From Burkholderiales bacterium (lineage in GTDB: Bacteria > Pseudomonadota > Gammaproteobacteria > Burkholderiales > SG8-39): a stretch of 64,000 nt of DNA. The DNA is taken from contig JBBDXL010000170.1 in the NCBI GenBank assembly GCA_040902335.1, positions 9,283 through 73,282 of the forward strand, in the 5' to 3' direction. The notes beneath the pieces are model-generated. The model did no database searches. It was not told where the DNA came from and saw only the letters and a program-made list of their open reading frames with translations. A program made the position numbers and the translations under genes. This document shows positions 33,389 through 49,722 of this stretch, piece after piece (the stretch's first letter is position 1; the number at the start of each line of letters is the position of its first letter).

Positions 33389-33389
33389 G

Positions 33390-34115: not shown

Positions 34116-34127
34116 CGGTCGCTGTTC

Positions 34128-34460: not shown

Positions 34461-34479
34461 ATCGTTTCTTCCTCCAGGA

Positions 34480-34779: not shown

Positions 34780-34790
34780 GTGTCCAGTCC

Positions 34791-35174
34791 TCAGAAGCTC
34801 AGGATCACGTCCTGCGCTTCCATGATTTCGGCCATGCGCTGCGTGCTCACCACCTCGACCGGCACCGCCAGGTCGGCCTCGGTGAGCCCGCGCGCTTCGA
34901 GCGCCTCCTTCTCCACGTAGAGCTTGGTGACGTCGTAGTCTTCCAGTGCGCGGAAGGTCGGCGAGAAGTTCTTCACTTCCAGCCCCTTGGTGTCCTGGCC
35001 CTTGGTCAACTGGTACACGCCGTCGCCCAGGAACGCGAGGCTCACGTCCTGCTCGAACGCCGCGCCGATCAGCACCACTTCGAGCGACTCGAGCGCGTAG
35101 ATGCTGCCGTAGGGCGCCCGGCGGTTCACGTACAGGAACCGCTTGGCGACGCCGCCTGCGTTTTCCTCAGTCAC
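34791..35174 (-). CDS. dsrF: DsrF (TusC-like) sulfur relay subunit
   Basis: 127-aa DsrE/F-fold ORF sitting between dsrE and dsrH. Confidence 0.85.
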   Translation of the reverse strand: MTEENAGGVAKRFLYVNRRAPYGSIYALESLEVVLIGAAFEQDVSLAFLGDGVYQLTKGQDTKGLEVKNFSPTFRALEDYDVTKLYVEKEALEARGLTEADLAVPVEVVSTQRMAEIMEAQDVILSF

Positions 35175-35559
35175 CGAACACCACCAGCCGGTCGGCCTGG
35201 ATGCCCGCCTCGATCAGCTGCCCGAGGCCCGAGATGCGGAACCCCGGCGCGATGTTGTCCGCGTCCTTGCCGTTCCTCTTGGCCTCGCTCTTGTCCATGA
35301 GCCCGCGGCGCTGCGCGGCGGCGATGCACACGACGAGGTCGAGCTTGTGCTCGGCGGCGAGCTCGCTCCAGCGCTTGACGACGTTGCGGTCGTCCTGCGG
35401 CGGCATCGTGAGGCGCGTGCCGTTGTTCACGCCGTCGTGATAGAAGAACACGCGGTAGATCTCGTGCCCCTTGGCGAGCGCGGCCCGGGTGAACTGGTAG
35501 GCCGTGTCCGAGGCCTCGTGCGTGTAGGGCCCCTCGTTGACCAGGATGCTGAGCTTCAT
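35167..35559 (-). CDS. dsrE: DsrE (TusD-like) sulfur relay subunit with active-site Cys
   Basis: 130-aa product MKLSILVNEGPYTHE...DLVVCIAAAQRRG (the conserved Cys). Confidence 0.9.
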   Translation of the reverse strand: MKLSILVNEGPYTHEASDTAYQFTRAALAKGHEIYRVFFYHDGVNNGTRLTMPPQDDRNVVKRWSELAAEHKLDLVVCIAAAQRRGLMDKSEAKRNGKDADNIAPGFRISGLGQLIEAGIQADRLVVFGD

Positions 35560-35561
35560 GC

Positions 35562-36656
35562 CTAGAAGCGGATGTGCGCCGAGGCGTTGAGGCTGTTCCT
35601 CGCCCCGCGCCAGTTGTCGATGTGGAACTTGGTGAACGGCAGCCCGGTCAGCTCGAAGAACCTCGGCCAGCCGATGCGCTCCACCCAGTCGCCTACGCGC
35701 TCCCAGTCGCGCGCGTCCTTCTTGTAGGTATACAGGATCTTCTTCACCACCGCGGCGACTTCCGGCCAGCGCGGCGGGTTGTTGGGCAGGCCCGCCGCCA
35801 CCAGCTTCTGGAACATCGGCTTGGAGCGGGCGTTGGAGTTCTTCCCGCCCACCCAGATGGCGAGCTTGGAGTGCTCCGGGTCGTTGATCTGCATCGGCGG
35901 GCACGGCGGGTAGCAGGCGCCGCAGCAGATGCACTTCTTCTCGTCCACCTCGAGCGAGGGCTTGCCGTTGACGATCGCCGGGCGGATCGCCGCCACCGGG
36001 CAGCGCGCCACCACGGAAGGCCGCTCGCACACGTTCGCCACCAGGTCGTGGTTGATCTTCGGCGGCTTGGTGTGCTGCACGTTGATCGCGATGTCGCCCT
36101 GGCCGCCGCAGTTGATCTGGCAGCACGAGGTGGTGATGTGCACGCGGTTCGGCATCTCCTCCTTGATGAACTCCTCGTAGAGCTCGTCCATCAGGGACTT
36201 CACCACGCCCGAGGCGTCGGTGCCGGGGATGTCGCAGTGCAGCCAGCCCTGCGTATGCGAGATCATGGTCACCGAGTTGCCGGTGCCGCCGACCGGGTAG
36301 CCCGCGTCGTTGAACGCCTGGATGAGGGGGCCGACCTTCTCCCACTTCGACACCATCACTTCCAGATTGGAGCGGATGGTGAAGCGCACGTGGCCTTCGC
36401 CGTACTGGTCGACGATGTCGCACAGCAGGTTGATCTCGTAGGGCCCGAGCTGGCGCTGAGTGCCGACGCGCACCGTCCAGATCTCGTCGCCCGAGTAGGC
36501 GACGTGGTGCAGCACCCCCGGCCGCGGCCGGTCGTGGTACTTCCAGTTGCCGAAGTTCTTCACCATCAGCGGATGCATGAACTGCATGCCGTCGGGACAC
36601 CCGCTCTCGATCGGCGTGCGCATCTGCTTCTTCTCTACCGCCTGTGCTTGTGCCAC
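35562..36656 (-). CDS. dsrB: dissimilatory sulfite reductase beta subunit (reverse/oxidative type by gene context)
   Basis: 364-aa ORF with siroheme/Fe-S motifs (TSCCQINCGG, CICCGACYPPCP). Confidence 0.95.
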   Translation of the reverse strand: MAQAQAVEKKQMRTPIESGCPDGMQFMHPLMVKNFGNWKYHDRPRPGVLHHVAYSGDEIWTVRVGTQRQLGPYEINLLCDIVDQYGEGHVRFTIRSNLEVMVSKWEKVGPLIQAFNDAGYPVGGTGNSVTMISHTQGWLHCDIPGTDASGVVKSLMDELYEEFIKEEMPNRVHITTSCCQINCGGQGDIAINVQHTKPPKINHDLVANVCERPSVVARCPVAAIRPAIVNGKPSLEVDEKKCICCGACYPPCPPMQINDPEHSKLAIWVGGKNSNARSKPMFQKLVAAGLPNNPPRWPEVAAVVKKILYTYKKDARDWERVGDWVERIGWPRFFELTGLPFTKFHIDNWRGARNSLNASAHIRF

Positions 36657-36677
36657 CGCGACCTCCTCAGTCCTGAC

Positions 36678-37982
36678 TCAGGCTACCGGCTGCTTGTGCC
36701 GCTCCACCCACTTCGCCGCTTCCTGGTCCCAGTCGTCCAGGCGCACGTAGGAGCTGGTGCGCGGATGGCTGATCATGTTCGGGTCGACCTCCACGCCGAT
36801 GCCCTCCAGGAAGTTCGCCAGGCCGATCCTCTCGATCATCTCGCCGCAGCGCTCGTGCTCCAGGCCGTTCTCCGCCCAGAAATCGATCACCGTGGCCGCC
36901 AGCTCGCGCAGCTTCTCGTAGTCCTCGTCGGTGTCCATCTTCATGAACGGCACGATCACCGTGCCCATGGTGTCGCCGATCTTCAGCGTCCGCTTGCCGC
37001 CGATGAGCAGGGTGATGCCGCGATCCTTGCCGGGTTTGAGCGCCTTGGTCATGACGTTGATGCAGTGCATGCAGCGCACGCAGCTCTTGTTGTCGACCTC
37101 GAGCGTGTCGTCATCGTTCAGCGACAGCGCCCTGGTCGGGCAGCGCGCGATGACGTTGTCGATGGTGTACTTGCGGCCGTGGCTCTCGATGTAGTCCTTC
37201 ACGCCCTTCTGGTCGACCTGCATGTCGTCGCGCCAGGTGCCGATCACGGCGAAGTCGGCGCGCTGGATCGAGTTCATGCAGTCGTTCGGGCAGCCCGAGA
37301 CCTTGAACTTGAACTTGTAGGGCAGCGCCGGGCGGTGCATGTCGTCGATGAAGTTGTTGACCAGCGTGCTGTGGATGCGGTGCTCGTTGGCGCAGGACTG
37401 CTCGCAGCGCGCCGCGCCGACGCAGGACATGGCGGTGCGCACGCACGGGCCCGCGCCGCCCAGGTCGAAGCCGTACTCGTTGATCTCGTCGAAGAAATGC
37501 TGCGTGTTCTCGCTGGTCGAGCCGATGAACATGATGTTGCCGGTCTGGCCGTGGAAAGCGATCAGGCCCGAGCCCCACTTGTTCCAGGAGTTGGAGAGCT
37601 GCCGCAGCAGCTTGGTGGTGTAGTGGTTCCCGGCGGGCGGCTGCACGCGCAGCGTGTGGAATTCCTTCGACTCCGGAAACATGCTCGCCACTTCGGAGAA
37701 GCGCGGGATGATGCCCCCGCCATAGCCGAACACCGAGACCGTGCCGCCCTTCCAGTAGCCGAGGCGCGTCTTGTACGAGTGCTCGAGCTGGCCGAGCAGG
37801 TCGACCATCATGTTGTTCTCGTGCGCCAGGCGCTTCAAGCCCGTGACGAAGCTCGGCCAGGGGCCGCTCTCGAGCTGGTCGAGCATCGGCGTCGGGTGGA
37901 AGGCCTTGGTGGACTTCTTCTCCTTGGGCAGGTAGGTGCTGTGCCGCTGCGGATCTTTCGGCGGCGTGCGGGCGTCGGACAT
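36678..37982 (-). CDS. dsrA: dissimilatory sulfite reductase alpha subunit (reverse/oxidative type by gene context)
   Basis: 434-aa ORF with ferredoxin-insert motifs (CVRCMHCINVM, SGCPNDC). First gene of the operon. Confidence 0.95.
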   Translation of the reverse strand: MSDARTPPKDPQRHSTYLPKEKKSTKAFHPTPMLDQLESGPWPSFVTGLKRLAHENNMMVDLLGQLEHSYKTRLGYWKGGTVSVFGYGGGIIPRFSEVASMFPESKEFHTLRVQPPAGNHYTTKLLRQLSNSWNKWGSGLIAFHGQTGNIMFIGSTSENTQHFFDEINEYGFDLGGAGPCVRTAMSCVGAARCEQSCANEHRIHSTLVNNFIDDMHRPALPYKFKFKVSGCPNDCMNSIQRADFAVIGTWRDDMQVDQKGVKDYIESHGRKYTIDNVIARCPTRALSLNDDDTLEVDNKSCVRCMHCINVMTKALKPGKDRGITLLIGGKRTLKIGDTMGTVIVPFMKMDTDEDYEKLRELAATVIDFWAENGLEHERCGEMIERIGLANFLEGIGVEVDPNMISHPRTSSYVRLDDWDQEAAKWVERHKQPVA

Positions 37983-38054
37983 CGCGGTCCCTCCAGATGT
38001 GCGAAATCGAGCCCCGCCAGTGTAATGACGCCCCCTCGCGCACCTGCCTGATCA

Positions 38055-38085
38055 TTGGGGATAGGCACCTCTCCCTTTGGGGATA
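38055..38085. promoter_or_regulatory. direct repeat TTGGGGATA x2 (22-bp spacing) in the dsrA / tauD-like divergent intergenic region
   Basis: TTGGGGATA at 38055..38063 and again at 38077..38085. Lies 73-103 nt upstream of the dsrA ATG and 32-62 nt upstream of the 38117 ATG. Confidence 0.3.
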
Positions 38086-38116
38086 TACGGGTTGCTTATG
38101 CCCAAGAGAGCCGCAA

Positions 38117-38998
38117 ATGCGGTACGTTGTGTTCGCCTTGAACGCCGTCCTGCAAGACCCATTCGACCGCCGGCGCGAGCGCAAGCTCGCGCGCTATCCG
38201 CGCCGCACCGAGGACCTGATCGTCGAGGTGCGCGATCCGCGCAATCTGAGCGACAGCGAGGCTGCCGAGATCCGGCGCCTGTGCGCCGTGGCGAACATGG
38301 CGGTGTACGCGAGCCCGCTCGCAGGCATAGCGGACAAGGACATCGCGCGGCGCCTCGGCGAGCGCCTCGGGCTCGAGCGCCTGCAGGCCAATCCGCTCGC
38401 CGACGAGGACGGCATCACCTCGCTCGAGGTGGCGGCGGAAAAGTCGGGACGAGGCTACATCCCGTACTCCAGCCGGCGGCTCCTCTGGCACACCGATGGC
38501 TACTACAACCCGCCCGCGAGCCGCATCCGCGCCTTCCTCCTGCACTGCGTGCGCCCCGCGGCCGAAGGCGGCGAGAACCGGCTGCTCGATCCGGAGATCG
38601 CCTACCTCCTGCTGCGCGACGCCGACCCGCGCTACGTCGCGGCGCTCTCGGCGCCAGACGCCATGACCATTCCCGCCAACGAGGAGAATCCCGCCGCGCA
38701 GCGCGCGGCGCAGACGGGTCCGGTCTTCTCCTGCGAGGGCGGCGCGCTGCACATGCGCTACACCGCGCGCACGCGCAGCATCGAGTGGCGGCCGGACGAG
38801 GTGACGCAGGCCGCGGTGCAGCGCCTGCGCGAGATCCTCGACTCCGACTCGCCCTATGTCTTCAAGCTGAGGCTCTCGGGAGGCCAGGGCCTGGTGTGCA
38901 ACAACGTGCTGCACGATCGCAGCGAGTTCACCGACGCACCCGGCGCGGGCCGCCTCGTGTACCGGGCGCGCTACGCCGACCGCATCGGCCCGGCATGA
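38117..38998 (+). CDS. TauD/TfdA-family Fe(II)/2-oxoglutarate dioxygenase-like protein
   Basis: 293-aa product from MRYVVFALN.... Has the HxD facial-triad motif LLWHTDGYY and the distal His in NNVLHDRSEF. The earlier track start (37997) lies within the promoter region. Confidence 0.75.
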   Translation: MRYVVFALNAVLQDPFDRRRERKLARYPRRTEDLIVEVRDPRNLSDSEAAEIRRLCAVANMAVYASPLAGIADKDIARRLGERLGLERLQANPLADEDGITSLEVAAEKSGRGYIPYSSRRLLWHTDGYYNPPASRIRAFLLHCVRPAAEGGENRLLDPEIAYLLLRDADPRYVAALSAPDAMTIPANEENPAAQRAAQTGPVFSCEGGALHMRYTARTRSIEWRPDEVTQAAVQRLREILDSDSPYVFKLRLSGGQGLVCNNVLHDRSEFTDAPGAGRLVYRARYADRIGPA

Positions 38999-39717
38999 AG
39001 ACCATCCCGCTCAAGTACATCCGGGAAGACCCGGGCGTCGGCAACGCCGACGACAGCAGCGACGCGGCCGAGGAGACCGGGAAGCTCAAGCGCCTGGTCG
39101 CCGGCGTGCGCGAGGAGCTCGACGCGCTCTCCCCCGGCGCGGCGCCGCTGCGCCGCGCCGACCTGCTGCTGCAGCTCGGCCGCGCGCTGGTGCGGCTCGA
39201 GCAGGGCGCCGAGGCCTGGGCCACCGCGCGCGAGGCGTTCGACCTATATCTCGCCGAGCAGGCCTGGGAAGGCGCGGCGCAGGCCTGCGACATCCTGTTC
39301 CTCGCCGGCGAGCCGCAATCGCTCGCCGCGCTCGGCCAGGGCATCTGGCTCGCGGTGACCTACCCGATCGATCCCGAGCTGAGCGTCGCGCTGCTGCAGC
39401 ACGTGGTCGACGAGACGCCGCCGGACGCCGACGGCGCGGCGGTTGCCGCGGTGACGGCGCACTACCTCGTAGACCTGCGCGCACAGGATCCGCAGCGCGA
39501 GCACCTGCTGCTCTACACCAACCAGCTGCTCGCTACGGTCGCGCGCCGGCATAGCGGCGTGGACGGGCAGGAGGCGTTCAACCGCTGGATCGAGGACATG
39601 GAGCTGAGCGACCCGGCGAAGTTCCTGCCGCGCCTCAGGAACGTGGTCGACGTCCTGGTGCAGGACGAGTGGTGGCTCGACCGCGACGCCCTGCAGGCGG
39701 CGCTGCCCGCGGACTGA
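38995..39717 (+). CDS. hypothetical helical protein
   Basis: 240-aa product MKTIPLKYIREDPG... with an ATGA overlap with the tauD-like gene. Coding-like composition; I recognised no family. Confidence 0.6.
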   Translation: MKTIPLKYIREDPGVGNADDSSDAAEETGKLKRLVAGVREELDALSPGAAPLRRADLLLQLGRALVRLEQGAEAWATAREAFDLYLAEQAWEGAAQACDILFLAGEPQSLAALGQGIWLAVTYPIDPELSVALLQHVVDETPPDADGAAVAAVTAHYLVDLRAQDPQREHLLLYTNQLLATVARRHSGVDGQEAFNRWIEDMELSDPAKFLPRLRNVVDVLVQDEWWLDRDALQAALPAD

Positions 39718-39722
39718 GTGGC

Positions 39723-40364
39723 ATGGACGAGGTCGTGGACGCGGTGTTCGCGATCGAGTGCCGCAGCCTGCCGGTCGACCACGCTTACGCGCTCTCCGCG
39801 GCGATCCAGGCGGCGCTGCCCTGGTTCGCCGGCGAGCCGCAAGCCGGGCTGCACACGATCCACGGGGCGTCCTCGGCGAGCGGCTGGATGCGGCCCGAGG
39901 GCGAGGACGCGCTGCTGCAGCTTTCGCATCGCACGAAGCTCGTGCTGCGCATTCCCGAGCGTCGCCTGGCGCATGCCGAGGCGCTCACCGGACTGACGCT
40001 GGACGTCGCCGGCTGGCCGATGCGCGTAGGCCGGGTATCGCCGCGCCCGCTCGTGCGCATCGCGTCGCTCTTCTCGCGCAGCGTGATCTTCGAGGGCGCG
40101 GCCGACGAGCCGGCGTTCGTCGCCGCCGCGATCGAGGGGCTGCGCGCGCTCGGCGTGGAAACCTCGACCATGCTCTGCGGGCGCGAGGTGACCCTCGCCA
40201 CGCCGGAAGGTACCTATCGGACGCGCAGCCTGATGGTGACTGTCGCCACGCCGGCGCAGTCGCTCGAGTTGCAGCGCCACGGGCTGGGCGAAGCGCGCAA
40301 GCTCGGCTGCGGCCTGTTTATTCCCCACAAGGACGTGGGCGACCTGCGCTCCGGATCGGATTGA
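39723..40364 (+). CDS. Cas6/Cmx6-like (type I-MYXAN Cas6 family) protein, orphan
   Basis: 213-aa product MDEVVDAVFAIECRSLPVDHAYAL...LELQRHGLGEARKLGCGLFIPHKD. The N-terminal VD..F.i.g..LP.DH and C-terminal G.G..R..GCG.F.PHK signatures match my memory of the Cmx6 family. No HMM search was run. Confidence 0.55.
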   Translation: MDEVVDAVFAIECRSLPVDHAYALSAAIQAALPWFAGEPQAGLHTIHGASSASGWMRPEGEDALLQLSHRTKLVLRIPERRLAHAEALTGLTLDVAGWPMRVGRVSPRPLVRIASLFSRSVIFEGAADEPAFVAAAIEGLRALGVETSTMLCGREVTLATPEGTYRTRSLMVTVATPAQSLELQRHGLGEARKLGCGLFIPHKDVGDLRSGSD

Positions 40365-40748: not shown

Positions 40749-40838
40749 TCGTAGGCTGGCTACGAATTATCCGTCCGTTCTAATAGATCGTCAGCAGGTA
40801 ATATTAGTATGGTGTGTATAATCGTAGTGTGGCTACGA
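40749..40838. promoter_or_regulatory. pair of palindromes TCGTAG-N5-CTACGA upstream of / overlapping the abiEi start: candidate AbiEi operator
   Basis: TCGTAGGCTGGCTACGA at 40749..40765 and TCGTAGTGTGGCTACGA at 40822..40838, in an AT-rich stretch containing TATAAT (40817..40822). Confidence 0.35.
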
Positions 40839-41566
40839 CTACTCATAGCAAACTAAATAACCTCTATAACCGGTTGCCTGGCGGCTCTCCGGTGACTTCG
40901 GCGGAGCTCGCTCGGATGGGTGTTTCCGCGGACCTTGCGGTCCACTACGCACGCGCCGGGTGGCTGCGGCGCTTGGCAAAGGGTGTCTACACCAAGCCTG
41001 GCGACTCGCTCCAGTTGCATCCAAGCCTCGTCGTGCTCCAACGGCAAGTAGCCGGCCTTCACGTTGGCGGGAAGACGGCTCTCGAGTGGTACGGCGTCCG
41101 CCAGTATGTGGCGCAGCAGTCCGTACTGCATCTGTACGGCTGGGTGACCGCGAAACATCCCGAGTGGTTCGTCAAGCACTTCCCGAGCGAGTATCACCGC
41201 AAGCGGCTGTTCAAGGAAAAGCCCGAGAACATGCCTGGAGTGGGTCGCTTCGAGAATCGCGACAACGCGCCCATGGTTTCAACGCCGGAACGGGCGCTCC
41301 TCGAGCTCCTGGACGAGGTGGGCGTTCGGCAACCGCTGCAGGAGGCGAGGGAGATAGCCGAAGGCACGTACAACCTCCGCGCCGAAGTGCTGATGGATCT
41401 TCTCAAGCAGTGCACGAGCGTGAAGACGGTACGGCTGTGCCTCATGCTCGGGCGCGAGCTTTCGCTGCCGTGGGGGAGCAAGCTCGACGCAGACGCCCTG
41501 CCGAAGGGAAGCGCGCGTCCCTGGATATCGAAGTCCAAAGACGGCCTGCTGGTGCTCAAGCCTTGA
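40814..41566 (+). CDS. abiEi: type IV toxin-antitoxin system AbiEi family antitoxin
   Basis: 250-aa ORF. N-terminal wHTH pattern (VTSAELARMGVSADLAVHYARAGWLRRLAKGVY) and a C-terminal AbiEi_3-like region. The start is uncertain (GTG 40814, GTG 40829 or later). Confidence 0.8.
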   Translation: MYNRSVATTTHSKLNNLYNRLPGGSPVTSAELARMGVSADLAVHYARAGWLRRLAKGVYTKPGDSLQLHPSLVVLQRQVAGLHVGGKTALEWYGVRQYVAQQSVLHLYGWVTAKHPEWFVKHFPSEYHRKRLFKEKPENMPGVGRFENRDNAPMVSTPERALLELLDEVGVRQPLQEAREIAEGTYNLRAEVLMDLLKQCTSVKTVRLCLMLGRELSLPWGSKLDADALPKGSARPWISKSKDGLLVLKP

Positions 41567-42480
41567 ATCAGGTTTATCTCGATACCGCGCGGCTCCTGAC
41601 CCAGGTCGCACCGCTGGTGTTCGCGAACAACGTCTTCGCGCTCAAGGGCGGAACGGCGATCAATCTCTTCGTCCGCGACATGCCCCGGCTGTCCGTGGAC
41701 CTCGACCTGGTTTTCGCCGATCACACCCTGGCCCGGGAAGAAGCGCTCGGCAAGATCAATGAGGCGATCAGGAGCGCCGGCGAGCGCCTGAAGAAGCGCG
41801 GGTTCCAGACTCACGTGGCGACGGTCGCCGACGCCGGCGAAACCAAGTTGTTCGTCCGGCGCGAGAAGCTGGAAGTCAAGGTCGAAGTAAATTTCGTGCT
41901 GCGAGGCACGGTGCATCCGGTTCGTCCGGCGTCGCTCACCGCGAAGGCGAAGGAAGTCTTGCAGGCGGATCTGGAATTACCGCTCCTGTCGCTTGAGGAT
42001 CTGTATGGCGGGAAGCTCGTGGCGGCAATGGACCGCCAGCATGCGCGAGACCTGTTCGACGTCATGGAGCTCTTCCGTCATGGGGGAATCACGCCGGGCA
42101 TCCGGCGCAGCTTCGTCGCCTACCTGGCCGCGCACAACCGGCCGATTCACGAGGTGCTTTACCCGAACCTTCGGGATGTTTCGGGCGGATACGAGGGCAC
42201 TTTCAAGGGCATGACGGCGGAGCCCGTGGCGTTGAAGGCGCTCCTGGCGGCGCGCGAGCGCATGGTGAAAGAGCTGCAGGCGGGGCTCGACATCGCCGAG
42301 CGCGAGTTCCTGCTATCGCTCGCCAGGAACGACCCCAAGTGGGACTTGCTGGGCATAGCGCATCTCGAGCAGATGCCCGGCGTCCGGTGGAAGCTGGAGA
42401 ACCTCGGCCGCCTGGCGAAGGCGAACCCGAAGAAGCTCAAGGCGCAGGCTGAGGAACTCGAGCGGCTGCTTGCGAAGTGA
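41563..42480 (+). CDS. abiEii: nucleotidyltransferase AbiEii/AbiGii family toxin
   Basis: 305-aa product with a TTG start overlapping the abiEi stop (TTGA). Has the FALKGGTAINLF...RLSVDLDLVF NTase motif. Confidence 0.85.
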   Translation: MNQVYLDTARLLTQVAPLVFANNVFALKGGTAINLFVRDMPRLSVDLDLVFADHTLAREEALGKINEAIRSAGERLKKRGFQTHVATVADAGETKLFVRREKLEVKVEVNFVLRGTVHPVRPASLTAKAKEVLQADLELPLLSLEDLYGGKLVAAMDRQHARDLFDVMELFRHGGITPGIRRSFVAYLAAHNRPIHEVLYPNLRDVSGGYEGTFKGMTAEPVALKALLAARERMVKELQAGLDIAEREFLLSLARNDPKWDLLGIAHLEQMPGVRWKLENLGRLAKANPKKLKAQAEELERLLAK

Positions 42481-42524: not shown

Positions 42525-42920
42525 TTAGCCTTGCCCTTCCGGCTCGCCCTGCCAGAGCATGTCGTAGCCCAGTTCCTTGGTCTCGGTGCACATCTTCGCC
42601 AGCGCCTCGAACTTGTTGGTGAACGTGGCGTCGGCGTGCGAGCGCTCGTGCTCCTCGAAGGAGCGCCAGTAGGTGACGATGACGTAATGCTCGTCCGCGG
42701 TGCGCGTGGCGTTGAGCGAGCCCTGGTCGGACACGAAGCCGGAGAACTTGAACACCTGGCCGGCGATGAAGCCGCCCTTGTCTCCACCGTAGGTTTCCTT
42801 GACCACGTTGCACATCTCGCCCACGGCCAGCTCGACATCCTCGAACTTGACGCCGGGCTTGAGTTTCACGGTGTTGAACAGCATCTTGGCGCCGAAGGGC
42901 AGGGTGATCGGTTCGAACAT
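42525..42920 (-). CDS. hypothetical protein, ABM/Dabb-like (ferredoxin-like alpha+beta) domain
   Basis: 131-aa ORF. The VIVTYWRSFEEHERSHADATFTNKF pattern resembles antibiotic-biosynthesis-monooxygenase-like domains. Confidence 0.5.
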   Translation of the reverse strand: MFEPITLPFGAKMLFNTVKLKPGVKFEDVELAVGEMCNVVKETYGGDKGGFIAGQVFKFSGFVSDQGSLNATRTADEHYVIVTYWRSFEEHERSHADATFTNKFEALAKMCTETKELGYDMLWQGEPEGQG

Positions 42921-42988: not shown

Positions 42989-43330
42989 ATGACGTACGAA
43001 GTGAACGGCAGGACGCTCGAGGCCACCGAGAGCGGCTACCTGGTGAACCAGGACGACTGGGACAAGGACGTCGCGCAGGCGATCGCCGCGGCCGAAGGCC
43101 TCACGCTCACCCAGGACCACTGGGACGTGATCGAGTACTTGCGCGATGCCTACCTCAATCACAACGGCGAGCAGCCGAACAATCGTGCCATCCTCAAGGC
43201 CATGCAAGACCAGTGGCCGGAGCGCAAGGTGGACAACAAGACCCTGTTCGATCTCTACCCGGGCAACCCTTCCAAGCAGGCGGGCAAGATCGCGGGGCTG
43301 CCCGAGAGCCTGCGCAAGGGCGGGTACTGA
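42989..43330 (+). CDS. TusE/DsrC-family protein with no cysteines (copy B, 9 aa differences from copy A)
   Basis: 113-aa ORF, collinear with 40382..40723. Nucleotide similarity starts at the ATG and stops at the TGA. Confidence 0.85.
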   Translation: MTYEVNGRTLEATESGYLVNQDDWDKDVAQAIAAAEGLTLTQDHWDVIEYLRDAYLNHNGEQPNNRAILKAMQDQWPERKVDNKTLFDLYPGNPSKQAGKIAGLPESLRKGGY

Positions 43331-43407: not shown

Positions 43408-43647
43408 ATGCGCCTTAACATACTTGAAGCGAAGAACCGGTTGTCCGAGCTGGTGCGCGCCGCATGTGCCGGAAAGGAAGTTGTGATCGCGAAGAACGGG
43501 CAGCCGATGGTGCGGCTCGTGCCCATCGCGGCAGCCGCCGGACTCAAGGGTTTCGGTTCGTTGAAATCCGTTCGCGGCGATGCCGACAAGGCGTTCACGC
43601 CTGCCACCGAGCGCGAGGTCGCGCGGCTCTTTCGCGGCCGCGCGTGA
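43408..43647 (+). CDS. Phd/YefM-family type II antitoxin
   Basis: 79-aa ORF MRLNILEAKNRLSELVRAACAGKEVVIAKNGQPMVRLVP, the classic Phd/YefM N-terminus. Confidence 0.8.
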   Translation: MRLNILEAKNRLSELVRAACAGKEVVIAKNGQPMVRLVPIAAAAGLKGFGSLKSVRGDADKAFTPATEREVARLFRGRA

Positions 43648-44018
43648 CGCTGCTGCTTGATACGCAGGTCGCGATCTGGTGGCTTGTCGGCAGCCGCCGG
43701 CTCGGCGGCCCGGCGCGAAAGCTGCTCGCCGGATCAGCCTGCGTGTTATCGGCGGCCAGCGTCTGGGAAGTCGCCATCAAGCACCGCCTCGGCAAGCTGT
43801 CCGTCGCACCGGCGCTGTTTCGCGATCGCATGATCGCGGCCGGCGCCGAGTTGCTGATGGTGTCCGATAGGCATGCCATCGAAACCGCCGCCTTGCCGCG
43901 CCACCACGACGACCCCTTCGACCGCATGCTGATTGCGCAGGCGCGCGTGGAAAAATTGCGGGCCGTTTCCGCGGACAGGGCGTGGCGGGACTACGAAATC
44001 GATCTCGCGGCCGTCTGA
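43644..44018 (+). CDS. vapC: PIN-domain toxin (VapC-like)
   Basis: 124-aa product with a GTG start overlapping the antitoxin stop (GTGA). LLLDTQVAIWW...SAASVWEVAIK...HHDDPFDRMLIAQA, with the PIN acidic residues. Confidence 0.8.
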   Translation: MTLLLDTQVAIWWLVGSRRLGGPARKLLAGSACVLSAASVWEVAIKHRLGKLSVAPALFRDRMIAAGAELLMVSDRHAIETAALPRHHDDPFDRMLIAQARVEKLRAVSADRAWRDYEIDLAAV

Positions 44019-44031: not shown

Positions 44032-44346
44032 TCACCCGTAGTGCTTGCGCTGCGCGCGCCTGCGGCCCACCTGCTGCACCACGCCGCCGCGGATGGTGTA
44101 GGGCGGGGTGAGCTCGAAGCCGCCGTACTTCGGGTTGAGGGGCTTCAGGAAGCGGCGCTCGCCGTCAAAAACGAGCTGGCGGAAGAAGACGTCCCCCGCG
44201 AACTCCACCACCATGTAAGAGCCGTCGCGCGGCACGTAGCCGGGGTCGACGATGACGACGCAGCCATCCGCGAATTCGGGCTCCATGCTGTCGCCGAGCA
44301 CGCGCAAGGCGTACGGTTCGAGCGCGCTGCAGCTTTCCTGGGCCAT
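44032..44346 (-). CDS. S24 (LexA/UmuD-type) serine peptidase domain protein without DNA-binding domain
   Basis: 104-aa product MAQESCSALEPYALRVLGDSMEPEF... (Ser nucleophile) and ...RRFLKPLNP (Lys). ATGA overlap with the upstream small gene. Confidence 0.7.
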   Translation of the reverse strand: MAQESCSALEPYALRVLGDSMEPEFADGCVVIVDPGYVPRDGSYMVVEFAGDVFFRQLVFDGERRFLKPLNPKYGGFELTPPYTIRGGVVQQVGRRRAQRKHYG

Positions 44347-44621
44347 CAGGGCTTCTTCTTGTAGAAATCGATCACCTTGTCCGCGCGCCCCGGCTCGTCG
44401 GCATAGCGCGGCTGCCCTCCGACCGGCCGGCCTGCGGCTTGCGCGAGTTCCCGCTCGCGCGCGCTGATCAACGCCAGGCACTGCCGCAAATCCTCGATCG
44501 TCGCGTCCGACAGCGGATGGCGCATGCCGTGGGGGGTGGCGGTGTCGCGGATCACCCCGGCGAGCGTCAGCTTCACCGCCTGCAGGATGCGCTCCTCCTT
44601 GGAAAGTTGCGGATCGCTCAT
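44346..44621 (-). CDS. hypothetical small protein (91 aa)
   Basis: Translationally coupled to the S24 gene and 10 nt downstream of the PiuC-like stop. Helical; I recognised no family. Confidence 0.5.
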   Translation of the reverse strand: MSDPQLSKEERILQAVKLTLAGVIRDTATPHGMRHPLSDATIEDLRQCLALISARERELAQAAGRPVGGQPRYADEPGRADKVIDFYKKKP

Positions 44622-44631
44622 CGCGTGCGCC

Positions 44632-45306
44632 TTAAATGTCCGACCACATGCGGATCAAATTCAGGTAAGCGGCATTCACCTGCGCGGTCTCCTCCGCCTC
44701 GGGCGCAGCCGCGAGCAGCTTCTCCCGCGCGAGGTTCAGCCCGTACAACAGCTCGCGCCGCGCCGGATCGCGCACCAGGCTCTGCACCCAGGTCACCGCC
44801 ACCAGCCGCTCGCCGCGCGTCACCGGACGCACCTGGTGGATCGTGCTCGCCGGATAGAGCACCGCGTCGCCCGCCGCGCCCTTCACCTGCTGCTCGCCCG
44901 AAGCCGTGCGCACGACGAGCTCGCCGCCATCGTACTCTTCGGGCGAGCTCAGAAACACCGTCACCGCAACGTCCGACCGGTACATCACCCCGCCGGTCCC
45001 CATGATCGGATCGTCCAGGTGTTCGCCGTACACCATCCCCGGCCGGTAGCGCGCATACAGCGGGCTCGCCGCGTGCAGCGGCAGCGCGCCGTTGCGGTAC
45101 ATCGGATGGCGCGACAAGGCGCCCATCACCAGCCGGTCGAGCCGCTCGACGTCGCCGGCGCCGCGATCGCGCTCCTGGTTCTCCTTCACGCGCCGCGCGG
45201 CGGCCCCGGCCGAGAGCTTGCCGTCCACAAACGGCGCATCGGCGAGCCAACTGCGCGCCAGCGCCAGCTCGTCGGGCTTGAGGACACCATTAACGACGAG
45301 CAGCAT
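44632..45306 (-). CDS. Fe(II)/2-oxoglutarate-dependent oxygenase, PKHD-type hydroxylase (PiuC/YbiX-like)
   Basis: 224-aa ORF with HxD in VYGEHLDDP, the distal His and Arg in STIHQVRPVTRGERL, and the YbiX-type C-terminal helical tail. Confidence 0.85.
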   Translation of the reverse strand: MLLVVNGVLKPDELALARSWLADAPFVDGKLSAGAAARRVKENQERDRGAGDVERLDRLVMGALSRHPMYRNGALPLHAASPLYARYRPGMVYGEHLDDPIMGTGGVMYRSDVAVTVFLSSPEEYDGGELVVRTASGEQQVKGAAGDAVLYPASTIHQVRPVTRGERLVAVTWVQSLVRDPARRELLYGLNLAREKLLAAAPEAEETAQVNAAYLNLIRMWSDI

Positions 45307-45312
45307 GCGCGC

Positions 45313-45657
45313 TCAGGTATCGGCTTGCGGCATCGGCAGGCCGGCCAGCCTGCAGATGCTGCGCACCGGATCGGTGTGGAACAGGCTGTAGATGTGCTTC
45401 TCGTAGGCCTTGCGGTCGCGAAAGCGCGCGCCCTCGCGCTTGCCGAGATCCAAGACCATCCTGCGCATGGTGGGCGCGGTCAGCGTTTCCTCGTAGTAGT
45501 CGCGGAAGTACCAGATCAGCTCCCAGTGGTCCACGAACAGCTCGAAGCCGTCGTGCGCGGCCAGCGCGCTCGCGAAATCCTCGCTCCAGTCGCCGAGCTC
45601 GAGCAGGAACCCCTGCTCGTCGGTCTCGATCGTCCTGCCGTTGACTTCGAACTGCAT
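45313..45657 (-). CDS. TusE/DsrC-family protein, penultimate Cys only (tail ...SICRLAGLPMPQADT)
   Basis: 114-aa ORF MQFEVNGRTIETDEQGFLLELGDWSEDFASALAAHDGFELFVDHWELIWYFRDYY... Confidence 0.8.
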   Translation of the reverse strand: MQFEVNGRTIETDEQGFLLELGDWSEDFASALAAHDGFELFVDHWELIWYFRDYYEETLTAPTMRRMVLDLGKREGARFRDRKAYEKHIYSLFHTDPVRSICRLAGLPMPQADT

Positions 45658-45660
45658 GTC

Positions 45661-46254
45661 TCACGCGAAGCAGATCCAGGTGGTGGCAATGTACTTGACC
45701 CCGGCCTGCAGCGTGACGCCGCGATGCACGTGCGTCCAGAACGGCGGGAACAGCACGAGCTTGCCCTGCGCCGGCCGGATCAGCACCTCCTGCAGCGGGA
45801 ACTCGGTCTCGCCGCCCGGCCCCGCGACGTCGTTCAGGTACCAGATGGCGACCATCTGGCGCGCGCTGAACTCGCCCGGCCCCGCGTCTACGTGCCAGTG
45901 GTAGTACTCCCCCGGCAAAGTGCGCTGCAGGTTGTAGCCGATGTCCTTGAACTTGTTGGCGGCGAAGAAGGGGAACTCCAGCGCGAAGGCGTTGAAGCTC
46001 GACACGAGCTGCTGCGCGAGGATCCGGTCGAGGTCGCGCCAGTCCTCGCGCCCGCTGATGCGCAGGTCGGTGGAGCGCTTGACCTGCGGCGCGATCTCGC
46101 CGGCCTGGCCGATCCGGCCCGGCGCCTGCTGGTCGGCAGAGGCCTCGAAGCGCCGGATGGCCTCCGCGCAGACGTCGGCCGGCAGCGCGCGCTCCTTCTC
46201 GTAGATGAAGCTCAAGGGCTTGACCTCGCGGATGCGCGCGTCCGAAAGCGACAT
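45661..46254 (-). CDS. 2OG-Fe(II) oxygenase, prolyl 4-hydroxylase-like
   Basis: 197-aa ORF with HxD in YYHWHVDAG, the distal His in FWTHVHRG and the Lys/Arg 2OG anchor region GVKYIATTW. Confidence 0.75.
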   Translation of the reverse strand: MSLSDARIREVKPLSFIYEKERALPADVCAEAIRRFEASADQQAPGRIGQAGEIAPQVKRSTDLRISGREDWRDLDRILAQQLVSSFNAFALEFPFFAANKFKDIGYNLQRTLPGEYYHWHVDAGPGEFSARQMVAIWYLNDVAGPGGETEFPLQEVLIRPAQGKLVLFPPFWTHVHRGVTLQAGVKYIATTWICFA

Positions 46255-46258
46255 CGGC

Positions 46259-46582
46259 TCAGCCGTACAGCAGCTCGGTGTTCTGCATCTCGCCCGCGGC
46301 GTCGATGTCCACGCCGACCGCGCCCGGCATGCGCAGGGCGATGTAGCCGGCCATCAGCATGGCGGTGGCCTCGTTGCCCGTCGTGAGGCTGGAGAGCAGC
46401 CGCTCGGCGACGATCTGGCAGCGCTGCAGCCGGTCGGGGCGCTCTACGAACTCGCGGCTCATCTGCCAGCCGCGGTCCATGTCGCGGTCGAGCCTGGCGT
46501 GGAACTCGGCGGATTCGCGCAGCAGGTCGTCGGGCAGCTCGATGGCGTAGACCTGCTCGCCGATGACGACCTTGAATTGCAT
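46259..46582 (-). CDS. hypothetical protein (107 aa), first gene of the oxygenase/DsrC-like operon
   Basis: Product MQFKVVIGEQVYAIELPDDLL.... Its stop lies 4 nt before the P4H-like start. The longer track start (46627) would overlap the divergent gene. Confidence 0.5.
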   Translation of the reverse strand: MQFKVVIGEQVYAIELPDDLLRESAEFHARLDRDMDRGWQMSREFVERPDRLQRCQIVAERLLSSLTTGNEATAMLMAGYIALRMPGAVGVDIDAAGEMQNTELLYG

Positions 46583-46619: not shown

Positions 46620-46817
46620 ATGGGCACCCCCTACTACGACGGCATCGACCGGATGCAGAAGCAGAACGTCGACCCCGAGTACATCAACGGCTGGGCGTCG
46701 GGCTTCCTGCACAACCCCAAGCGCGAGCAGCAACGCGCGAACGAGGCCTACGAGGCCGGCTACGCGGCCGGCCTGAAGAAAGACAAGGGCGGCTTCGAGG
46801 CCTGGATCAGGAAGTAG
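46620..46817 (+). CDS. hypothetical small protein (65 aa)
   Basis: MGTPYYDGIDRMQKQNVDPEYINGW... preceded by AGGAG 10 nt upstream. No family recognised. Confidence 0.4.
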   Translation: MGTPYYDGIDRMQKQNVDPEYINGWASGFLHNPKREQQRANEAYEAGYAAGLKKDKGGFEAWIRK

Positions 46818-47241
46818 CGCGCTCGGCGGCCGCGCGCCACTTCGCGGCCTCGGCGGGGGCGGCGCCGACCCCGAGGCCCTTCTCGTACATCGTCGCGAGC
46901 ATCGACTGCGAGCCCGCCAGGCCCTGCTCGGCGGCGCGCCTGAACCACTGCGCCGCCTCGGCATGGTCGGCCTTGGTGCACTCGCCCTGGAAGTACATGA
47001 ACCCCAGGCCGTGCTCGGCGAGCGCGTAGCCCTGCCCGGCGGCGGCGCGCATCCACTTCACCGCGCTGGCGCAGTTCTTCACCACGCCCAGGCCCACCTG
47101 CCACATGATCGCCACGCGGTACTGCGCCGCGGGCGCGCCGCGCTCGGCGAGCGGCAGCAGCAGCTGCAGGGCGCGCGCGAACTCCTTCGCCTCGAAGGCC
47201 GCAACGCCGCTCGCCATCTCCATATCCAGTCCTGACATCAC
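46807..47241 (-). CDS. Sel1-repeat (SLR/TPR-like) protein
   Basis: 144-aa ORF with repeated A.A..W...AA.QG...A...LG.MY..G motifs (3-4 Sel1 repeats). Confidence 0.75.
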   Translation of the reverse strand: MMSGLDMEMASGVAAFEAKEFARALQLLLPLAERGAPAAQYRVAIMWQVGLGVVKNCASAVKWMRAAAGQGYALAEHGLGFMYFQGECTKADHAEAAQWFRRAAEQGLAGSQSMLATMYEKGLGVGAAPAEAAKWRAAAERATS

Positions 47242-47267
47242 GTCCCCTCGCGTCTATTATCCCCCGC

Positions 47268-47852
47268 ATGGCCATCATCAGCAGCCGCCCGCAGATCGCG
47301 CTGGTCAAGACGCGCTGGCGCAAGAAAGGACCGCGCACGGTGGAGGAGCGCGCGGGCGTCATCGGCGCCAACGTGTGGAAGATCGCGCTCGAGATCTTCA
47401 AGCACATGGAGAAGGAGGGATTCCGCTTCGGCTCCGACCGCCTGACCACCGACGTCATCGCCGAGCTCATCGCCTTCCAGGTCCAGCTCCTCGATCGCGC
47501 GGTCTACGGCAGGCTGGAGGAGGCCGAGCGCGCGGCGCTCATCGGCGAGGTGGTCCGCCACCTCGCGGCGACCATGGAGAACAACCAGACGGACCTCTTC
47601 GGGCCGGGGGAATACCGCGAGCCTTTCATCGCGCTGCTCAATGCGCGCTTCGCCGAGTACGCAGGCATCGAGTATCGCGGTGCGGAGCCGAGCTATGACT
47701 GCCTGCGTTATTTCGCCACTCGCGTGTCCGACCTGATGGCGCAGAGCGACAACAAGTGGGTGGTCGAGCAGATGATGGACATCGAAGCGCCCGAGATGGC
47801 GCGCCTGGTCAGGAAGCTCGCCGAGCAGACCGTGGACGCCACGCCGCCCTAG
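47268..47852 (+). CDS. hypothetical protein (194 aa)
   Basis: Coding-like composition. Stop overlaps the convergent 47849..48820 gene by 4 nt. No family recognised. Confidence 0.55.
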   Translation: MAIISSRPQIALVKTRWRKKGPRTVEERAGVIGANVWKIALEIFKHMEKEGFRFGSDRLTTDVIAELIAFQVQLLDRAVYGRLEEAERAALIGEVVRHLAATMENNQTDLFGPGEYREPFIALLNARFAEYAGIEYRGAEPSYDCLRYFATRVSDLMAQSDNKWVVEQMMDIEAPEMARLVRKLAEQTVDATPP

Positions 47853-48820
47853 AGGCGCGCGCGCGCCCCGGCGAGCCAGCGCTCGGCGCCCTCGCGCGCC
47901 ACCTGCTCGAGCCGGCGCAGCGATCCGCTGCGCAGGAATTCCTCGTAGGCTTCGAGCGCTTGCGGGAACAGCTGGCGGCGCGGGGCGTCGAAGGTGGCGA
48001 AGTGGAAATGCAGCGCCGGGAGGTTTGCGCGCTCGATCAGCGCCGGCAGCGTCTGCAGGCAGTCGGCGAGCAGGTCGCGCACCGCGCGCGCCTCGATTTC
48101 GGCGGGCGTGCCCGCGACCGACACGATCATCTCGTCCCACGCCCCGCCGAGCAGCTCGCCCGCCGCCGCCTCGCCGATCTCGTGCAGGATCATGGTTTCC
48201 ATCTCGTTGCCCGCCATGCGCGCGAGCGCGCTTTCCGGGTCGGCGATGAAGTCGTAGCTCGCCAGCACGCGCGCCATGGCACCGCCCTGCTTGCGCCACT
48301 GCCACTCCTCGATCTTCTCCCACAGATAGCGGCGCACCGACTCCAGGCGCACGAAGATGGTCCGCCCCTGCAGCATCGCCGGCGGCGCGGCCAGCTCGCG
48401 CGCGTACTCGCAGGAGGAAACGCGGATCGTGAGGCCGGCGCGCTCCTCTACGCGCAGCAGCTCCCCGAGGAAGAACACCGGCTTACCCATCCGTCCGAGC
48501 CCGGCGCCGTAGACGCAACCCTGCGGCAGCAATTCGTGGTTGGCGGCTTCGGCATCGAACGGGTCGAGCTCCGCGCACGCGATCGGCAAGGGCGCGAATG
48601 CGTCGTGCTCGATGCCGTCCCAGGCCTGCTCGCGCGCCTTCAGCCAGTCGCCCAGCTCGTCCTTCGGCAGGCTGCGCGCGAAAGGCAGCTCGTTCTCCCA
48701 GCGGTAGTACTCGCGCATCTTCAGCAGGAAAGTGCACAGGCCGTAGTCGCCCGCGTGGCGCGCGTCCGAGATGTCGCAATTGCGCTGCACGACGCTCGCC
48801 AGTTGCGGAAGATTGCGCAT
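47849..48820 (-). CDS. conserved hypothetical protein (323 aa)
   Basis: MRNLPQLASVVQRNCDISDARHAGDYGLCTFLLKMREYYRWE.... Looks like a conserved family, but I cannot name it with confidence. Confidence 0.6.
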   Translation of the reverse strand: MRNLPQLASVVQRNCDISDARHAGDYGLCTFLLKMREYYRWENELPFARSLPKDELGDWLKAREQAWDGIEHDAFAPLPIACAELDPFDAEAANHELLPQGCVYGAGLGRMGKPVFFLGELLRVEERAGLTIRVSSCEYARELAAPPAMLQGRTIFVRLESVRRYLWEKIEEWQWRKQGGAMARVLASYDFIADPESALARMAGNEMETMILHEIGEAAAGELLGGAWDEMIVSVAGTPAEIEARAVRDLLADCLQTLPALIERANLPALHFHFATFDAPRRQLFPQALEAYEEFLRSGSLRRLEQVAREGAERWLAGARARL

Positions 48821-48867: not shown

Positions 48868-49356
48868 ATGGCCAAGACAAGCGCCCCGAAGCCCCACGTC
48901 ACGCTCGACATGCTCGGCGCCGCCTGCCCCGGCCCGATGATCGGCGCGCGCCGCGTGCTCGACGACCTGCTCGCGGGCGAGGTGATGCTGCTGAAATCCG
49001 ACTGCCCCGGGACCCGGGACGACCTGCTGTCCTGGCCGAAGTACGCCGACGTGGAGATCTTGAAGACCGCGAAGCTGCCGCGCGGCGGGACCGCGTACTA
49101 CATCCGCAAGGGCAAGGGCCGGCGCGTGTCCGCCAACGCCGTTCTCGACATGCGCGGCGCCACCTGCCCCGGCCCCGTCATCGAGGCGAAGAAGCTGCTG
49201 AACGGCATGCGCGAGGGCGAAGTGCTGCAGCTGCTCAGCGATTGTCCCGGCATCCGGGCGGACGTGCGCAGCTGGGTGAAGGCAACCGGCCTGGATTTGG
49301 CCGATGCGCGCGAAAGCGCGCCCGGCGAGTACGTCTTTCACATCCGAAAGCGCTGA
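48868..49356 (+). CDS. tandem TusA/SirA-domain protein (two CPGP sulfur-carrier motifs)
   Basis: 162-aa ORF. Repeat 1 LDMLGAACPGPMIGARR, repeat 2 LDMRGATCPGPVIEAKK. Each is followed by the SDCPG motif. Confidence 0.8.
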   Translation: MAKTSAPKPHVTLDMLGAACPGPMIGARRVLDDLLAGEVMLLKSDCPGTRDDLLSWPKYADVEILKTAKLPRGGTAYYIRKGKGRRVSANAVLDMRGATCPGPVIEAKKLLNGMREGEVLQLLSDCPGIRADVRSWVKATGLDLADARESAPGEYVFHIRKR

Positions 49357-49359
49357 ATC

Positions 49360-49722
49360 ATGAGCTTGATGGACGAGATCATCGGCAAGGGCGACGCCGG
49401 CAAGGACGCCCTGTTCCCGCACGCGCCCGCGGGCTGGACGCCGGCGCTCGCCGCCGAGTCCGCGCGGCGCGAAGACCTGGAGCTCGGCGAAGAGCACTGG
49501 ATGGCGGTACGCGCCCTGCAGGAATACTTCGCGCGGCACGAACCGACCGCGGTCAACCTGCGCGAGCTGCACGATGCGCTCGACGAGAAGTTCCATCGCC
49601 AGGGCGGGATCCGGCGCCTGTACCTGCTTTTCCCCGGCGGGCCGGTGGCGCAGGGCTGCCGCGTGGCCGGGCTCAAGGCGCCGGCGGGCGCCACCGACAA
49701 GGGCTTCGGCAGCGTCGCCTAG
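49360..49722 (+). CDS. divergent TusE/DsrC-family protein, penultimate Cys only, extended tail (...LFPGGPVAQGCRVAGLKAPAGATDKGFGSVA)
   Basis: 120-aa ORF starting 3 nt after the tandem-TusA stop. Has the LELGEEHWMAVRALQEYF core typical of the DsrC helix-turn-helix-like region. Confidence 0.7.
   Translation: MSLMDEIIGKGDAGKDALFPHAPAGWTPALAAESARREDLELGEEHWMAVRALQEYFARHEPTAVNLRELHDALDEKFHRQGGIRRLYLLFPGGPVAQGCRVAGLKAPAGATDKGFGSVA

Follow-up and report, generated by a model that had tools for sequence, protein, structure and literature searches.

A frequently remodelled array with a DsrC paralogue, two 2-oxoglutarate oxygenases and a stand-alone S24-like protein in the dsr island of an uncultured Burkholderiales bacterium

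We analysed a 64-kb stretch of DNA from an uncultured Burkholderiales bacterium (64,000 nucleotides of contig JBBDXL010000170.1, the whole of which is called the window here), and in particular an array of six minus-strand genes, named g1 to g6 in the order of that strand. The array is located in a conserved sulfur island upstream of the reverse-dsr operon. It runs from position 46582 to 44032 and consists of g1 (46582..46259, 107 amino acids, aa), the 2-oxoglutarate (2OG)/Fe(II) oxygenase gene g2 (46254..45661, 197 aa), the DsrC paralogue g3 (45657..45313, 114 aa), the second oxygenase gene g4 (45306..44632, 224 aa), g5 (44621..44346, 91 aa) and g6 (44346..44032, 104 aa), which encodes an S24 peptidase domain. 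All six open reading frames (ORFs) were found where an earlier note on this DNA had placed them. The gaps of 4, 3, 6 and 10 nucleotides (nt) given in that note were reproduced, while the proposed ATGA overlap between g5 and g6 was replaced by a TGATG junction with a single shared base (1-nt overlap). Pfam and NCBIfam scans bore out the domains assigned to g2 (2OG oxygenase), g3 (DsrC), g4 (PiuC type) and g6 (S24), and gave no family match for g1 and g5. With its short gaps, its 1-nt overlap and an order that is kept across species, the array is the compact co-directional unit that had been supposed, and as judged from the spacing the six genes are probably co-transcribed.

The array was compared with related loci from two starting points. 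One genome per species was scanned for g2, which has relatives in 223 of approximately 185,000 species genomes; 80 of these 223 loci were fetched, mostly from uncultured Burkholderiales (Casimicrobiaceae, Usitatibacter, SG8_39/41). A metagenome scan for g3 gave 242 relatives, from which 80 contigs were fetched. The fetched genome loci and metagenome contigs were numbered (L001 and so on) and searched by tblastn with all proteins of the window. The whole slot, bordered by an Alvin_2107-like gene on the left and a Cys-less DsrC-like gene on the right, was visible in 53 of the g2 loci and 44 of the g3 contigs. The full six-gene order was present in at least nine other species genomes and 11 metagenome contigs, and the synteny is thus kept far outside this genome. 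Dozens of species genomes and metagenome contigs show the same order with junctions below 150 nt, and for this reason the array is far beyond chance.

The content of the slot is highly variable. The commonest order in the 53 g2 loci was g1-g2-g4-g5-g6 (27 loci), followed by the six-gene order (9) and g1-g2-g5-g6 (7). The most constant member was g6 (52/53 g2-anchored and 44/44 g3-anchored slots), together with g5 (52/53 and 37/44) and g1 (53/53 and 27/44). The DsrC paralogue g3 was present in only 12 of the 53 g2-anchored slots and g4 in 44 of them; in the g3-anchored slots g2 was found in 28/44 and g4 in 12/44 (missing from 16/44 and 32/44 respectively). Twelve slot architectures were counted among the 53 genomes and eight among the 44 contigs, and mapping on the g2 tree gave at least eight gain or loss events for g3 and at least six for g4. 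There was no evident association between g3 and g4 (g4 in 10/12 loci with g3 and 34/41 without it). The relative order was the same in nearly all slots, the sole reordering being a swap of g5 and g6 in L056 and L065. The proteins encoded by g1, g2, g5 and g6 are approximately 70-95% identical across many species. Among the contigs with a recognisable context, g3 was in the same slot in all but four. Gamma-proteobacterial loci keep only g1 and g2, beside the DUF6866, Alvin_2107, Sel1 and 194-aa genes described below and with other genes interposed; the g2 relatives of Sulfuricaulis, Acidiferrobacteraceae and Muproteobacteria are approximately 70% identical.

The earlier note had read the array as coupling the DsrC-like protein to the oxygenases. 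This coupling is not supported by the distribution of the genes, although hydroxylation where the genes do co-occur would be compatible with it: g3 is missing from 41 of the 53 g2-bearing genomes and neither oxygenase is present in 15 of the 44 g3-bearing contigs, which represent 11 distinct populations (ten g3-g5-g6 contigs from ten populations and five g1-g3-g5-g6 contigs from one), while the g3 tail is conserved regardless of the oxygenase genes.

The g3 protein has the DsrC/TusE fold (DsrC PF04358, E 6e-29; TIGR03342, 94.8 bits, cutoff 53.5) and its best Protein Data Bank (PDB) match is the DsrC of Allochromatium vinosum (1yx3, E 3e-22); it is 43% identical to the true DsrC of the window (34128..34460). 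Its tail SICRLAGLPMPQADT, with a single Cys as noted before, corresponds to C102-RLAGLPMPQAD-T114. In DsrC and TusE the penultimate Cys of the arm, CysA, is essential for the chemistry of the protein. When CRLAGLPMPQADT is aligned to CRFAGLPKPTGCV, Asp113 falls at this penultimate CysA position in g3, and none of the g3 orthologs has a Cys there; g3 would therefore not perform the persulfide/trisulfide chemistry of DsrC. The second cysteine, CysB (Cys102, approximately 10 residues before the CysA position), was kept in 93 of 96 orthologs (80/80 from metagenomes and 13/16 from genomes) and was replaced by Ser or Gly in L004, L005 and L022, all of them genome orthologs. The tail C[KR]LAGLPMPQ[PA]DT was conserved in nearly all 80 g3 orthologs, with five single-residue variants, and contains a P-x-P-x-P motif (LPMPQPDT in most orthologs); its conservation was the same with and without oxygenase genes.

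Thus g3 matches the DsrC/TusE/RspA family over its full length and keeps the AGLP-x-P motif of the flexible arm and the CysB position, but it differs from DsrC in having Asp113 for CysA, a tail of its own (LPMPQ[PA]DT) and an optional gene outside the dsr operon, approximately 11 kb from the dsrC of that operon and missing in most related genomes. In fold and CysB it is DsrC-like; in CysA and location it is not. It is not a TusE (NF008562, 73 bits, cutoff 191; C-terminal Cys absent), and it differs from a classical Cys-free RspA-type protein in that CysB is usually kept. Four homologs of g3, with 68-73% identity, were found away from the usual slot (L154, L155, L157 and L158). In L158 (539..3218), the only one of the four that was read, the tail ends in LPMPQPDS, no oxygenase is nearby, and the neighbours resemble by sequence a pyridoxal phosphate-dependent ACC-deaminase/D-cysteine-desulfhydrase, a dienelactone hydrolase and a DksA/TraR zinc-finger protein. 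Sulfur oxidisers harbour multiple DsrC-family paralogues whose role is unassigned, such as Alvin_0028, 0345, 0732 and 1508 of A. vinosum (PMC3368242, PMC11267869). DsrC paralogues and Alvin_2107-type small proteins are known to accompany Dsr oxidation, as they do here; these two papers describe no oxygenase or S24-like genes beside the DsrC paralogues, the combination itself not having been searched for.

The g2 protein belongs to PF13640 (2OG-FeII_Oxy_3, E 7e-11). Its best relatives of solved structure are prolyl 4-hydroxylases (P4Hs), those of PBCV-1 (5c5t, E 2.5e-5) and Bacillus anthracis (3itq, E 1.6e-4), with which the iron triad H121-x-D123...H177 and the 2OG-binding Lys187 align. H121, D123 and H177 were invariant in 81/81 sequences. 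As in collagen-type and viral P4Hs, g2 has a double-stranded beta-helix core, the H-x-D...H triad and the 2OG-binding Lys; unlike them, it forms a very conserved family of 197 aa that among the loci seen is confined to dsr-island contexts, and the weak similarity (E 2.5e-5) covers only residues ~102-194 and leaves the first 100 residues without a match. A large protein database contained 3843 relatives of g2, the 120 best of those listed having identities of 81% or more. The protein is thus P4H-like in its active site only, and peptidyl-proline hydroxylation is a candidate activity.

The g4 protein is a PiuC/YbiX-type (PKHD) 2OG/Fe(II) dioxygenase with H96-L-D98 and H157 at the iron site. It matched NF003974 (Fe2+-dependent dioxygenase) over its full length (227.7 bits, cutoff 143), NF003975 (219 bits, cutoff 180) and PKHD_C (PF18331), and aligned end to end with Sbal_3634 (3dkq, E 5.6e-48) and PiuC (9ghl, E 1e-41). 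In its HxD...H site and PKHD_C domain it is like the PiuC/YbiX/CciO dioxygenases throughout. Members of the PiuC family typically serve iron uptake and have the gene of a Fur-regulated TonB-dependent receptor beside their own (PMC12004947), whereas the neighbours of g4 are the DsrC paralogue g3 and g5, in a sulfur island. No TonB receptor was found among the scanned ORFs of the window, many others being unscanned. The gamma-proteobacterial relatives have g4 elsewhere, beside an ORF that resembles msrB by sequence (no family search confirmed it). A literature search combining PiuC, 2-oxoglutarate and hydroxylase found no paper that joins the three. With intact Fe(II)/2OG sites, g2 and g4 are presumably active O2-dependent hydroxylases.

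The g6 protein consists of a Peptidase_S24 domain (PF00717, E 8e-17) with no helix-turn-helix (HTH), and its best PDB match is the C-terminal domain of lambda CI. Its marked residues are Cys6, Ser20 (GDSM) and Arg56, which were conserved in 55/55, 54/55 and 55/55 orthologs, and a basic tail (GRRRAQRKHY). The nucleophilic Ser of S24 peptidases is thus present, but the general-base Lys (K192 in lambda CI, K156 in LexA) is not. It had been located in the FLKP motif of g6; however, K192 of CI ('TFKKL') aligns to the invariant Arg56 ('FFRQL'), and Lys68 of FLKP aligns to the 'FLQP' of CI and varies among the orthologs (K41, E8, Q2, R2, A1, T1). The protein has no Ala-Gly or Cys-Gly cleavage-site region of its own, as only ~11 residues precede the first core strand, and it has no counterpart of the VQAG that XRE-S24 relatives carry ~30 residues upstream.

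An exhaustive search for relatives (P0362-P0510) placed g6 in a wider family of stand-alone proteins of 100-135 aa, annotated in their sources as 'LexA', 'DNA polymerase V' or 'S24 family peptidase'. In the alignment every short member has Arg (FRQ), where XRE-S24 repressors have Lys (FKQ), and an invariant Cys shortly before the first core strand. A basic tail QRxGxRRxxxKxY is present in most of them, and several have Ile, Met, Ala, Asp or Val in place of the Ser nucleophile. Distant members (L161, L165-L167) are solitary, beside an AI-2E transporter, fpg, a two-component system or rnhA-dnaQ, with neither g5-like nor DsrC-like neighbours. With LexA, lambda CI and UmuD, g6 has in common the signature of the S24 fold and the Ser of GDSM, the C-terminal domain of CI being the nearest to it; unlike them, it has Arg for Lys, no cleavage loop and no DNA-binding domain, and it adds the invariant N-terminal Cys and the basic C-terminal tail to a domain whose Ser is often lost in relatives. 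The signature of the family is that of a non-catalytic, or at least non-LexA-like, S24-fold derivative, and g6 itself is probably a pseudo-peptidase. The self-cleavage or partner cleavage proposed earlier is not supported, in view of the invariant Arg, the missing cleavage-site region and the frequent replacement of Ser in the wider family.

The two remaining genes belong to narrow, lineage-restricted families. For g1, the first gene of the array, 709 relatives were found, every one annotated 'hypothetical'; an AlphaFold2 (AF2) model (pLDDT 87, pTM 0.84) gave no match with E <1 when compared with the PDB by Foldseek. Gamma-proteobacterial homologs (L067 6020..6607, L069, L072, L075 and L079) are longer at the C-terminus by a conserved stretch of ~80 aa (…KLGKLEAMEQAGKDVTKVYQVGKSYRFAVRD…), which the 107-aa g1 of beta-proteobacteria lacks. 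In L067, the sole gamma locus in which the ORFs were read, g1 directly follows DUF6866, and an opposite-strand ORF resembling by sequence an HPP/CBS membrane protein lies between g1 and g2. For g5, only 889 relatives were found, all unannotated. Its AF2 model (pLDDT 71) is a helical hairpin (residues 8-27 and 39-62) with a disordered tail and likewise gave no Foldseek match in the PDB with E <1. The hairpin loop is highly conserved (DTATPHGMRHPLSD), and most orthologs have an A-A-G linker in which the A-G is not invariant. The gene adjoins g6 nearly always. We considered g5 as the DNA-binding half of a split LexA and rejected it, with no HTH or family match and an A-G that varies.

Two other explanations of the array as a whole were rejected. 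A defence system was considered, and PADLOC gave generic 2OG-domain matches for g2 and g4 only and none for g1, g3, g5 and g6. Integron-like cassettes were considered as the source of the modularity and were rejected because the junctions of 3-40 nt are too short for attC sites. The gene set matches no sulfur-relay or SOS module that is known, as the earlier note had held, the gene combination itself never having been a literature query.

The left border of the slot is the plus-strand gene of an Alvin_2107-family small protein (46620..46817; NF049856, E 1.6e-26, residues 24-81 of a long ORF), which is conserved there in beta and gamma loci. It starts at ATG 46620, with AGGAG 8 nt upstream, and is divergent from g1, with 37 nt between the start codons. 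In the literature Alvin_2107 was found in one paper, as a figure-legend label only. The gene is followed by that of a Sel1-repeat protein (46807..47241, minus strand), a 194-aa protein without family (47268..47852, plus) and a DUF6866/Sfum_1244-family protein (47849..48820, minus), the first and last identified by Pfam/NCBIfam. These genes form a block of alternating strands, and the block 46807..48820 is syntenic with g1/g2 in Burkholderiales, Sulfuricaulis, Acidiferrobacteraceae and Muproteobacteria. From 46620 to 48820 the divergent starts are only 26-37 nt apart and the convergent 3' ends overlap by 4-11 nt. There are 7 nt between the end of a good sigma-70-like site (CTGACA-17-TATTAT, 47232-47260) and the start codon ATG of the 194-aa gene, and the sequence suggests that the mRNA of this gene may be leaderless. 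A literature search on DUF6866/Sfum_1244 found nothing, the gene combination itself not being searched.

Upstream of the block, a TusA-TusA fusion (48868..49356, plus) is directly followed by a third atypical DsrC-family gene (49360..49722, plus) with CysB only and an extended tail CRVAGLKAPAGATDKGFGSVA; most loci keep this pair upstream of the slot. Further upstream in the window are the genes of TusA, a CsoR-like repressor and DsrE2.

The right border is a Cys-less (RspA-like) DsrC-family gene (42989..43330, plus; TIGR03342, E 4e-29; tail AGLPESLRKGGY). In most relatives it is convergent with g6 and directly adjacent to it; here a Phd/PIN toxin-antitoxin pair (43408..44018, plus) separates the two. 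The gene of a 131-aa protein without family match (42525..42920, minus; 88-97% identity among relatives) adjoins it in many loci. An AbiEi/AbiEii pair (40814..42480, plus) is inserted in the island, and a Cas6 gene (39669..40364, plus; PF09559, E 4e-56) lies beyond it; no spaced repeats of a CRISPR array were detected anywhere in the window. Insertions were also seen within the slot of relatives. In L001 an ORF (8748..10205) that resembles a MASE1-GGDEF diguanylate cyclase (by sequence, with no family search) lies between g2 and g3, and a second copy of the final ~30 g2 codons precedes g3, fused to it in frame; the same g2 duplicate was found in L003. Similar gaps of ~1.6 kb, in which ORFs were not read, are present in L003 and L005. 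It seems that the slot is a hot spot for insertions.

The sulfur island extends to the genes dsrAB-EFH-C-MK (31898..37982; dsrA, B, F, H, M and K identified), with those up to P also in the window. The true dsrC (34128..34460, minus; TIGR03342, 165 bits, full length; tail CKYAGLPKPTGCV) is the only one of the four DsrC-family genes of the window that has both cysteines; the arms of all four contain A-G. A third 2OG oxygenase of the island, of the TauD/TfdA family (37997..38998, plus), is divergent from dsrA. Its homologs (62-90% identity) were present in 38 of 80 related loci, including gamma-proteobacterial ones, and just upstream of dsrA wherever dsrA was also within the fetched flank. In at least 34 of the 80 loci, dsrA and g2 were no more than 8 kb apart.

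Taking these data together, we lean towards reading the array as a co-transcribed, frequently remodelled accessory or regulatory bundle of the dsr island and not as a DsrC-hydroxylation cassette; within this reading our confidence is high for the comparative statements and low for the functions, all of which we infer. The array occupies a variable slot flanking the reverse-dsr operon in uncultured sulfur-oxidising Burkholderiales, in which g1-g2 are the part common to gamma-proteobacterial sulfur oxidisers, g5-g6 the nearly constant pair at the 3' end, limited to the beta lineage, and g3 and g4 optional genes with many gains and losses. Keeping the fold and the flexible arm, g3 may mimic DsrC without being catalytic, acting as an adaptor, a competitor or a regulator; it would dock on DsrC-binding partners via the conserved LAGLPMPQPDT arm without carrying sulfur. 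The g6 protein would not be a LexA-type self-cleaving protein; it could be a pseudo-peptidase or binding module partnered with g5. Together with the TauD-type oxygenase beside dsrA, g2 and g4 might adapt or regulate sulfur metabolism when O2 is available. The comparative data speak against an obligate partnership of g3 with the oxygenases and against LexA-type proteolysis by g6.

Several points weigh against this reading. Co-transcription is deduced from the gene spacing, and a scan for consensus promoters and terminators found no internal minus-strand site, a result that is uninformative in DNA of 68% GC. The metagenome contigs are short, so an oxygenase missing from the slot may lie elsewhere in the genome. 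The retention of CysB hints at some thiol chemistry of g3 and not at a purely structural role, and the conservation of Ser20 in 54/55 orthologs leaves room for residual Ser/Arg hydrolysis by g6. Finally, the families of g4 and g6 are also found in contexts unrelated to sulfur (PiuC by TonB receptors, PMC12004947; g6-like proteins by fpg or rnhA-dnaQ), and the array genes may therefore share only their location.

This last point leads to the main rival, which we regard as unlikely and yet as the strongest competitor, namely that the genes have no common function and that a recombination-prone, permissive slot gathers unrelated small genes that are transcribed together by default. It would account for the extreme combinatorial variability and for the foreign inserts nearby (the AbiE pair, the Phd/PIN pair and Cas6 in the window, the GGDEF gene in L001), and the g4 and g6 families are indeed solitary or otherwise linked elsewhere (for g4, PMC12004947). 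However, a merely permissive slot sits poorly with the near-constant gene order, in which only g5 and g6 swap in two loci, and with the tight junctions. The ~70-95% identity of g1, g2, g5 and g6 across many species implies selection, a DsrC paralogue (g3) lies in a sulfur island, and g1 and g2 keep the same neighbours in gamma-proteobacteria.

An improbable alternative is that g2 uses O2 to hydroxylate the arms of all DsrC-family proteins (the GLPKPTGCV arm of DsrC, the Cys-less neighbour and, where present, g3), which would place Dsr oxidation under the control of O2. The conservation of g2 in a dsr-linked island of beta and gamma lineages, its invariant catalytic triad and Lys, and the DsrC-family gene that is nearly always close (the Cys-less paralogue by g6, with dsrC a few kb off) are all consistent with this idea. 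The evidence is nevertheless that of neighbourhood only, only one Pro is present in the arm (AGLPES) of the Cys-less neighbour, and g2 occurs in so few species genomes (223 of ~185,000) that most Dsr-type oxidisers must lack it.

Slightly less credible still is the model of the earlier note, in which g2 and/or g4 hydroxylates Pro (or Lys or Asp) in the g3 arm and the S24 protein processes a partner. The position of g2 just 3 nt before g3, the fact that its nearest relatives of solved structure are peptidyl-prolyl 4-hydroxylases acting on proline-rich repeats, the conserved P-x-P-x-P of the arm and the full six-gene order in ~20 other loci would fit it. Against this stand the 41 of 53 g2-bearing genomes without g3, the 15 of 44 g3 contigs (11 populations) without an oxygenase, in which the arm is equally conserved, and the four g3 homologs outside the slot, of which the one examined (L158) has no oxygenase nearby. 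Moreover, g6 has neither the general-base Lys nor a cleavage-site region, and the match of g2 to P4Hs is weak (E ~1e-5) and uninformative on the substrate.

A further conjecture, to which we give a shade less credit again, is that prolyl hydroxylation by g2 of the GLP(K/M)P arm of DsrC and of the CysA-less paralogues forms an O2-sensing switch, with the Ser/Arg protein g6 reading or binding the A-G-L-P arm. If this were true, the arm that shuttles sulfur between DsrEFH, DsrAB and DsrK would become the O2 sensor of dissimilatory sulfur oxidation.

Grimm and co-workers are said to have reported in 2010 that DsrC binds the dsr promoter. The least probable proposal, that g5-g6 (possibly with a DsrC-like protein) are a split LexA/CI-like regulator whose S24-like domain binds the L-A-G-L-P arm or the g5 tail and controls neighbouring sulfur genes, can point to the constancy of g6 and its position next to a DsrC-family gene in most loci, to the A-G in all DsrC-family arms of the window (the dipeptide cleaved or bound by S24 domains), to the invariant basic tail of g6 and to the A-A-G linker of most g5 orthologs, but it is purely conjectural, neither g5 nor g6 showed a DNA-binding domain, the A-G varies among g5 orthologs and distant members of the g6 family have no DsrC-like or g5-like neighbour.

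Among the routes of the sulfur cycle, Dsr-based sulfur oxidation is a major one, and the DsrC paralogues that accompany it are many. The locus offers a CysA-less DsrC paralogue with a conserved proline-rich arm of its own, a dsr island with as many as three genes for 2OG/Fe(II) oxygenases, in uncultured Burkholderiales that are abundant in soil and sediment, and a widespread, previously uncharacterised family of stand-alone S24-like proteins without the catalytic Lys. Its value lies in well-defined candidate accessory genes and in a caution, since tight operonic packing is here not proof of an enzyme-substrate pair. If any product of the array acts on the Dsr machinery, oxygen or iron status would be linked to sulfur oxidation in these bacteria.

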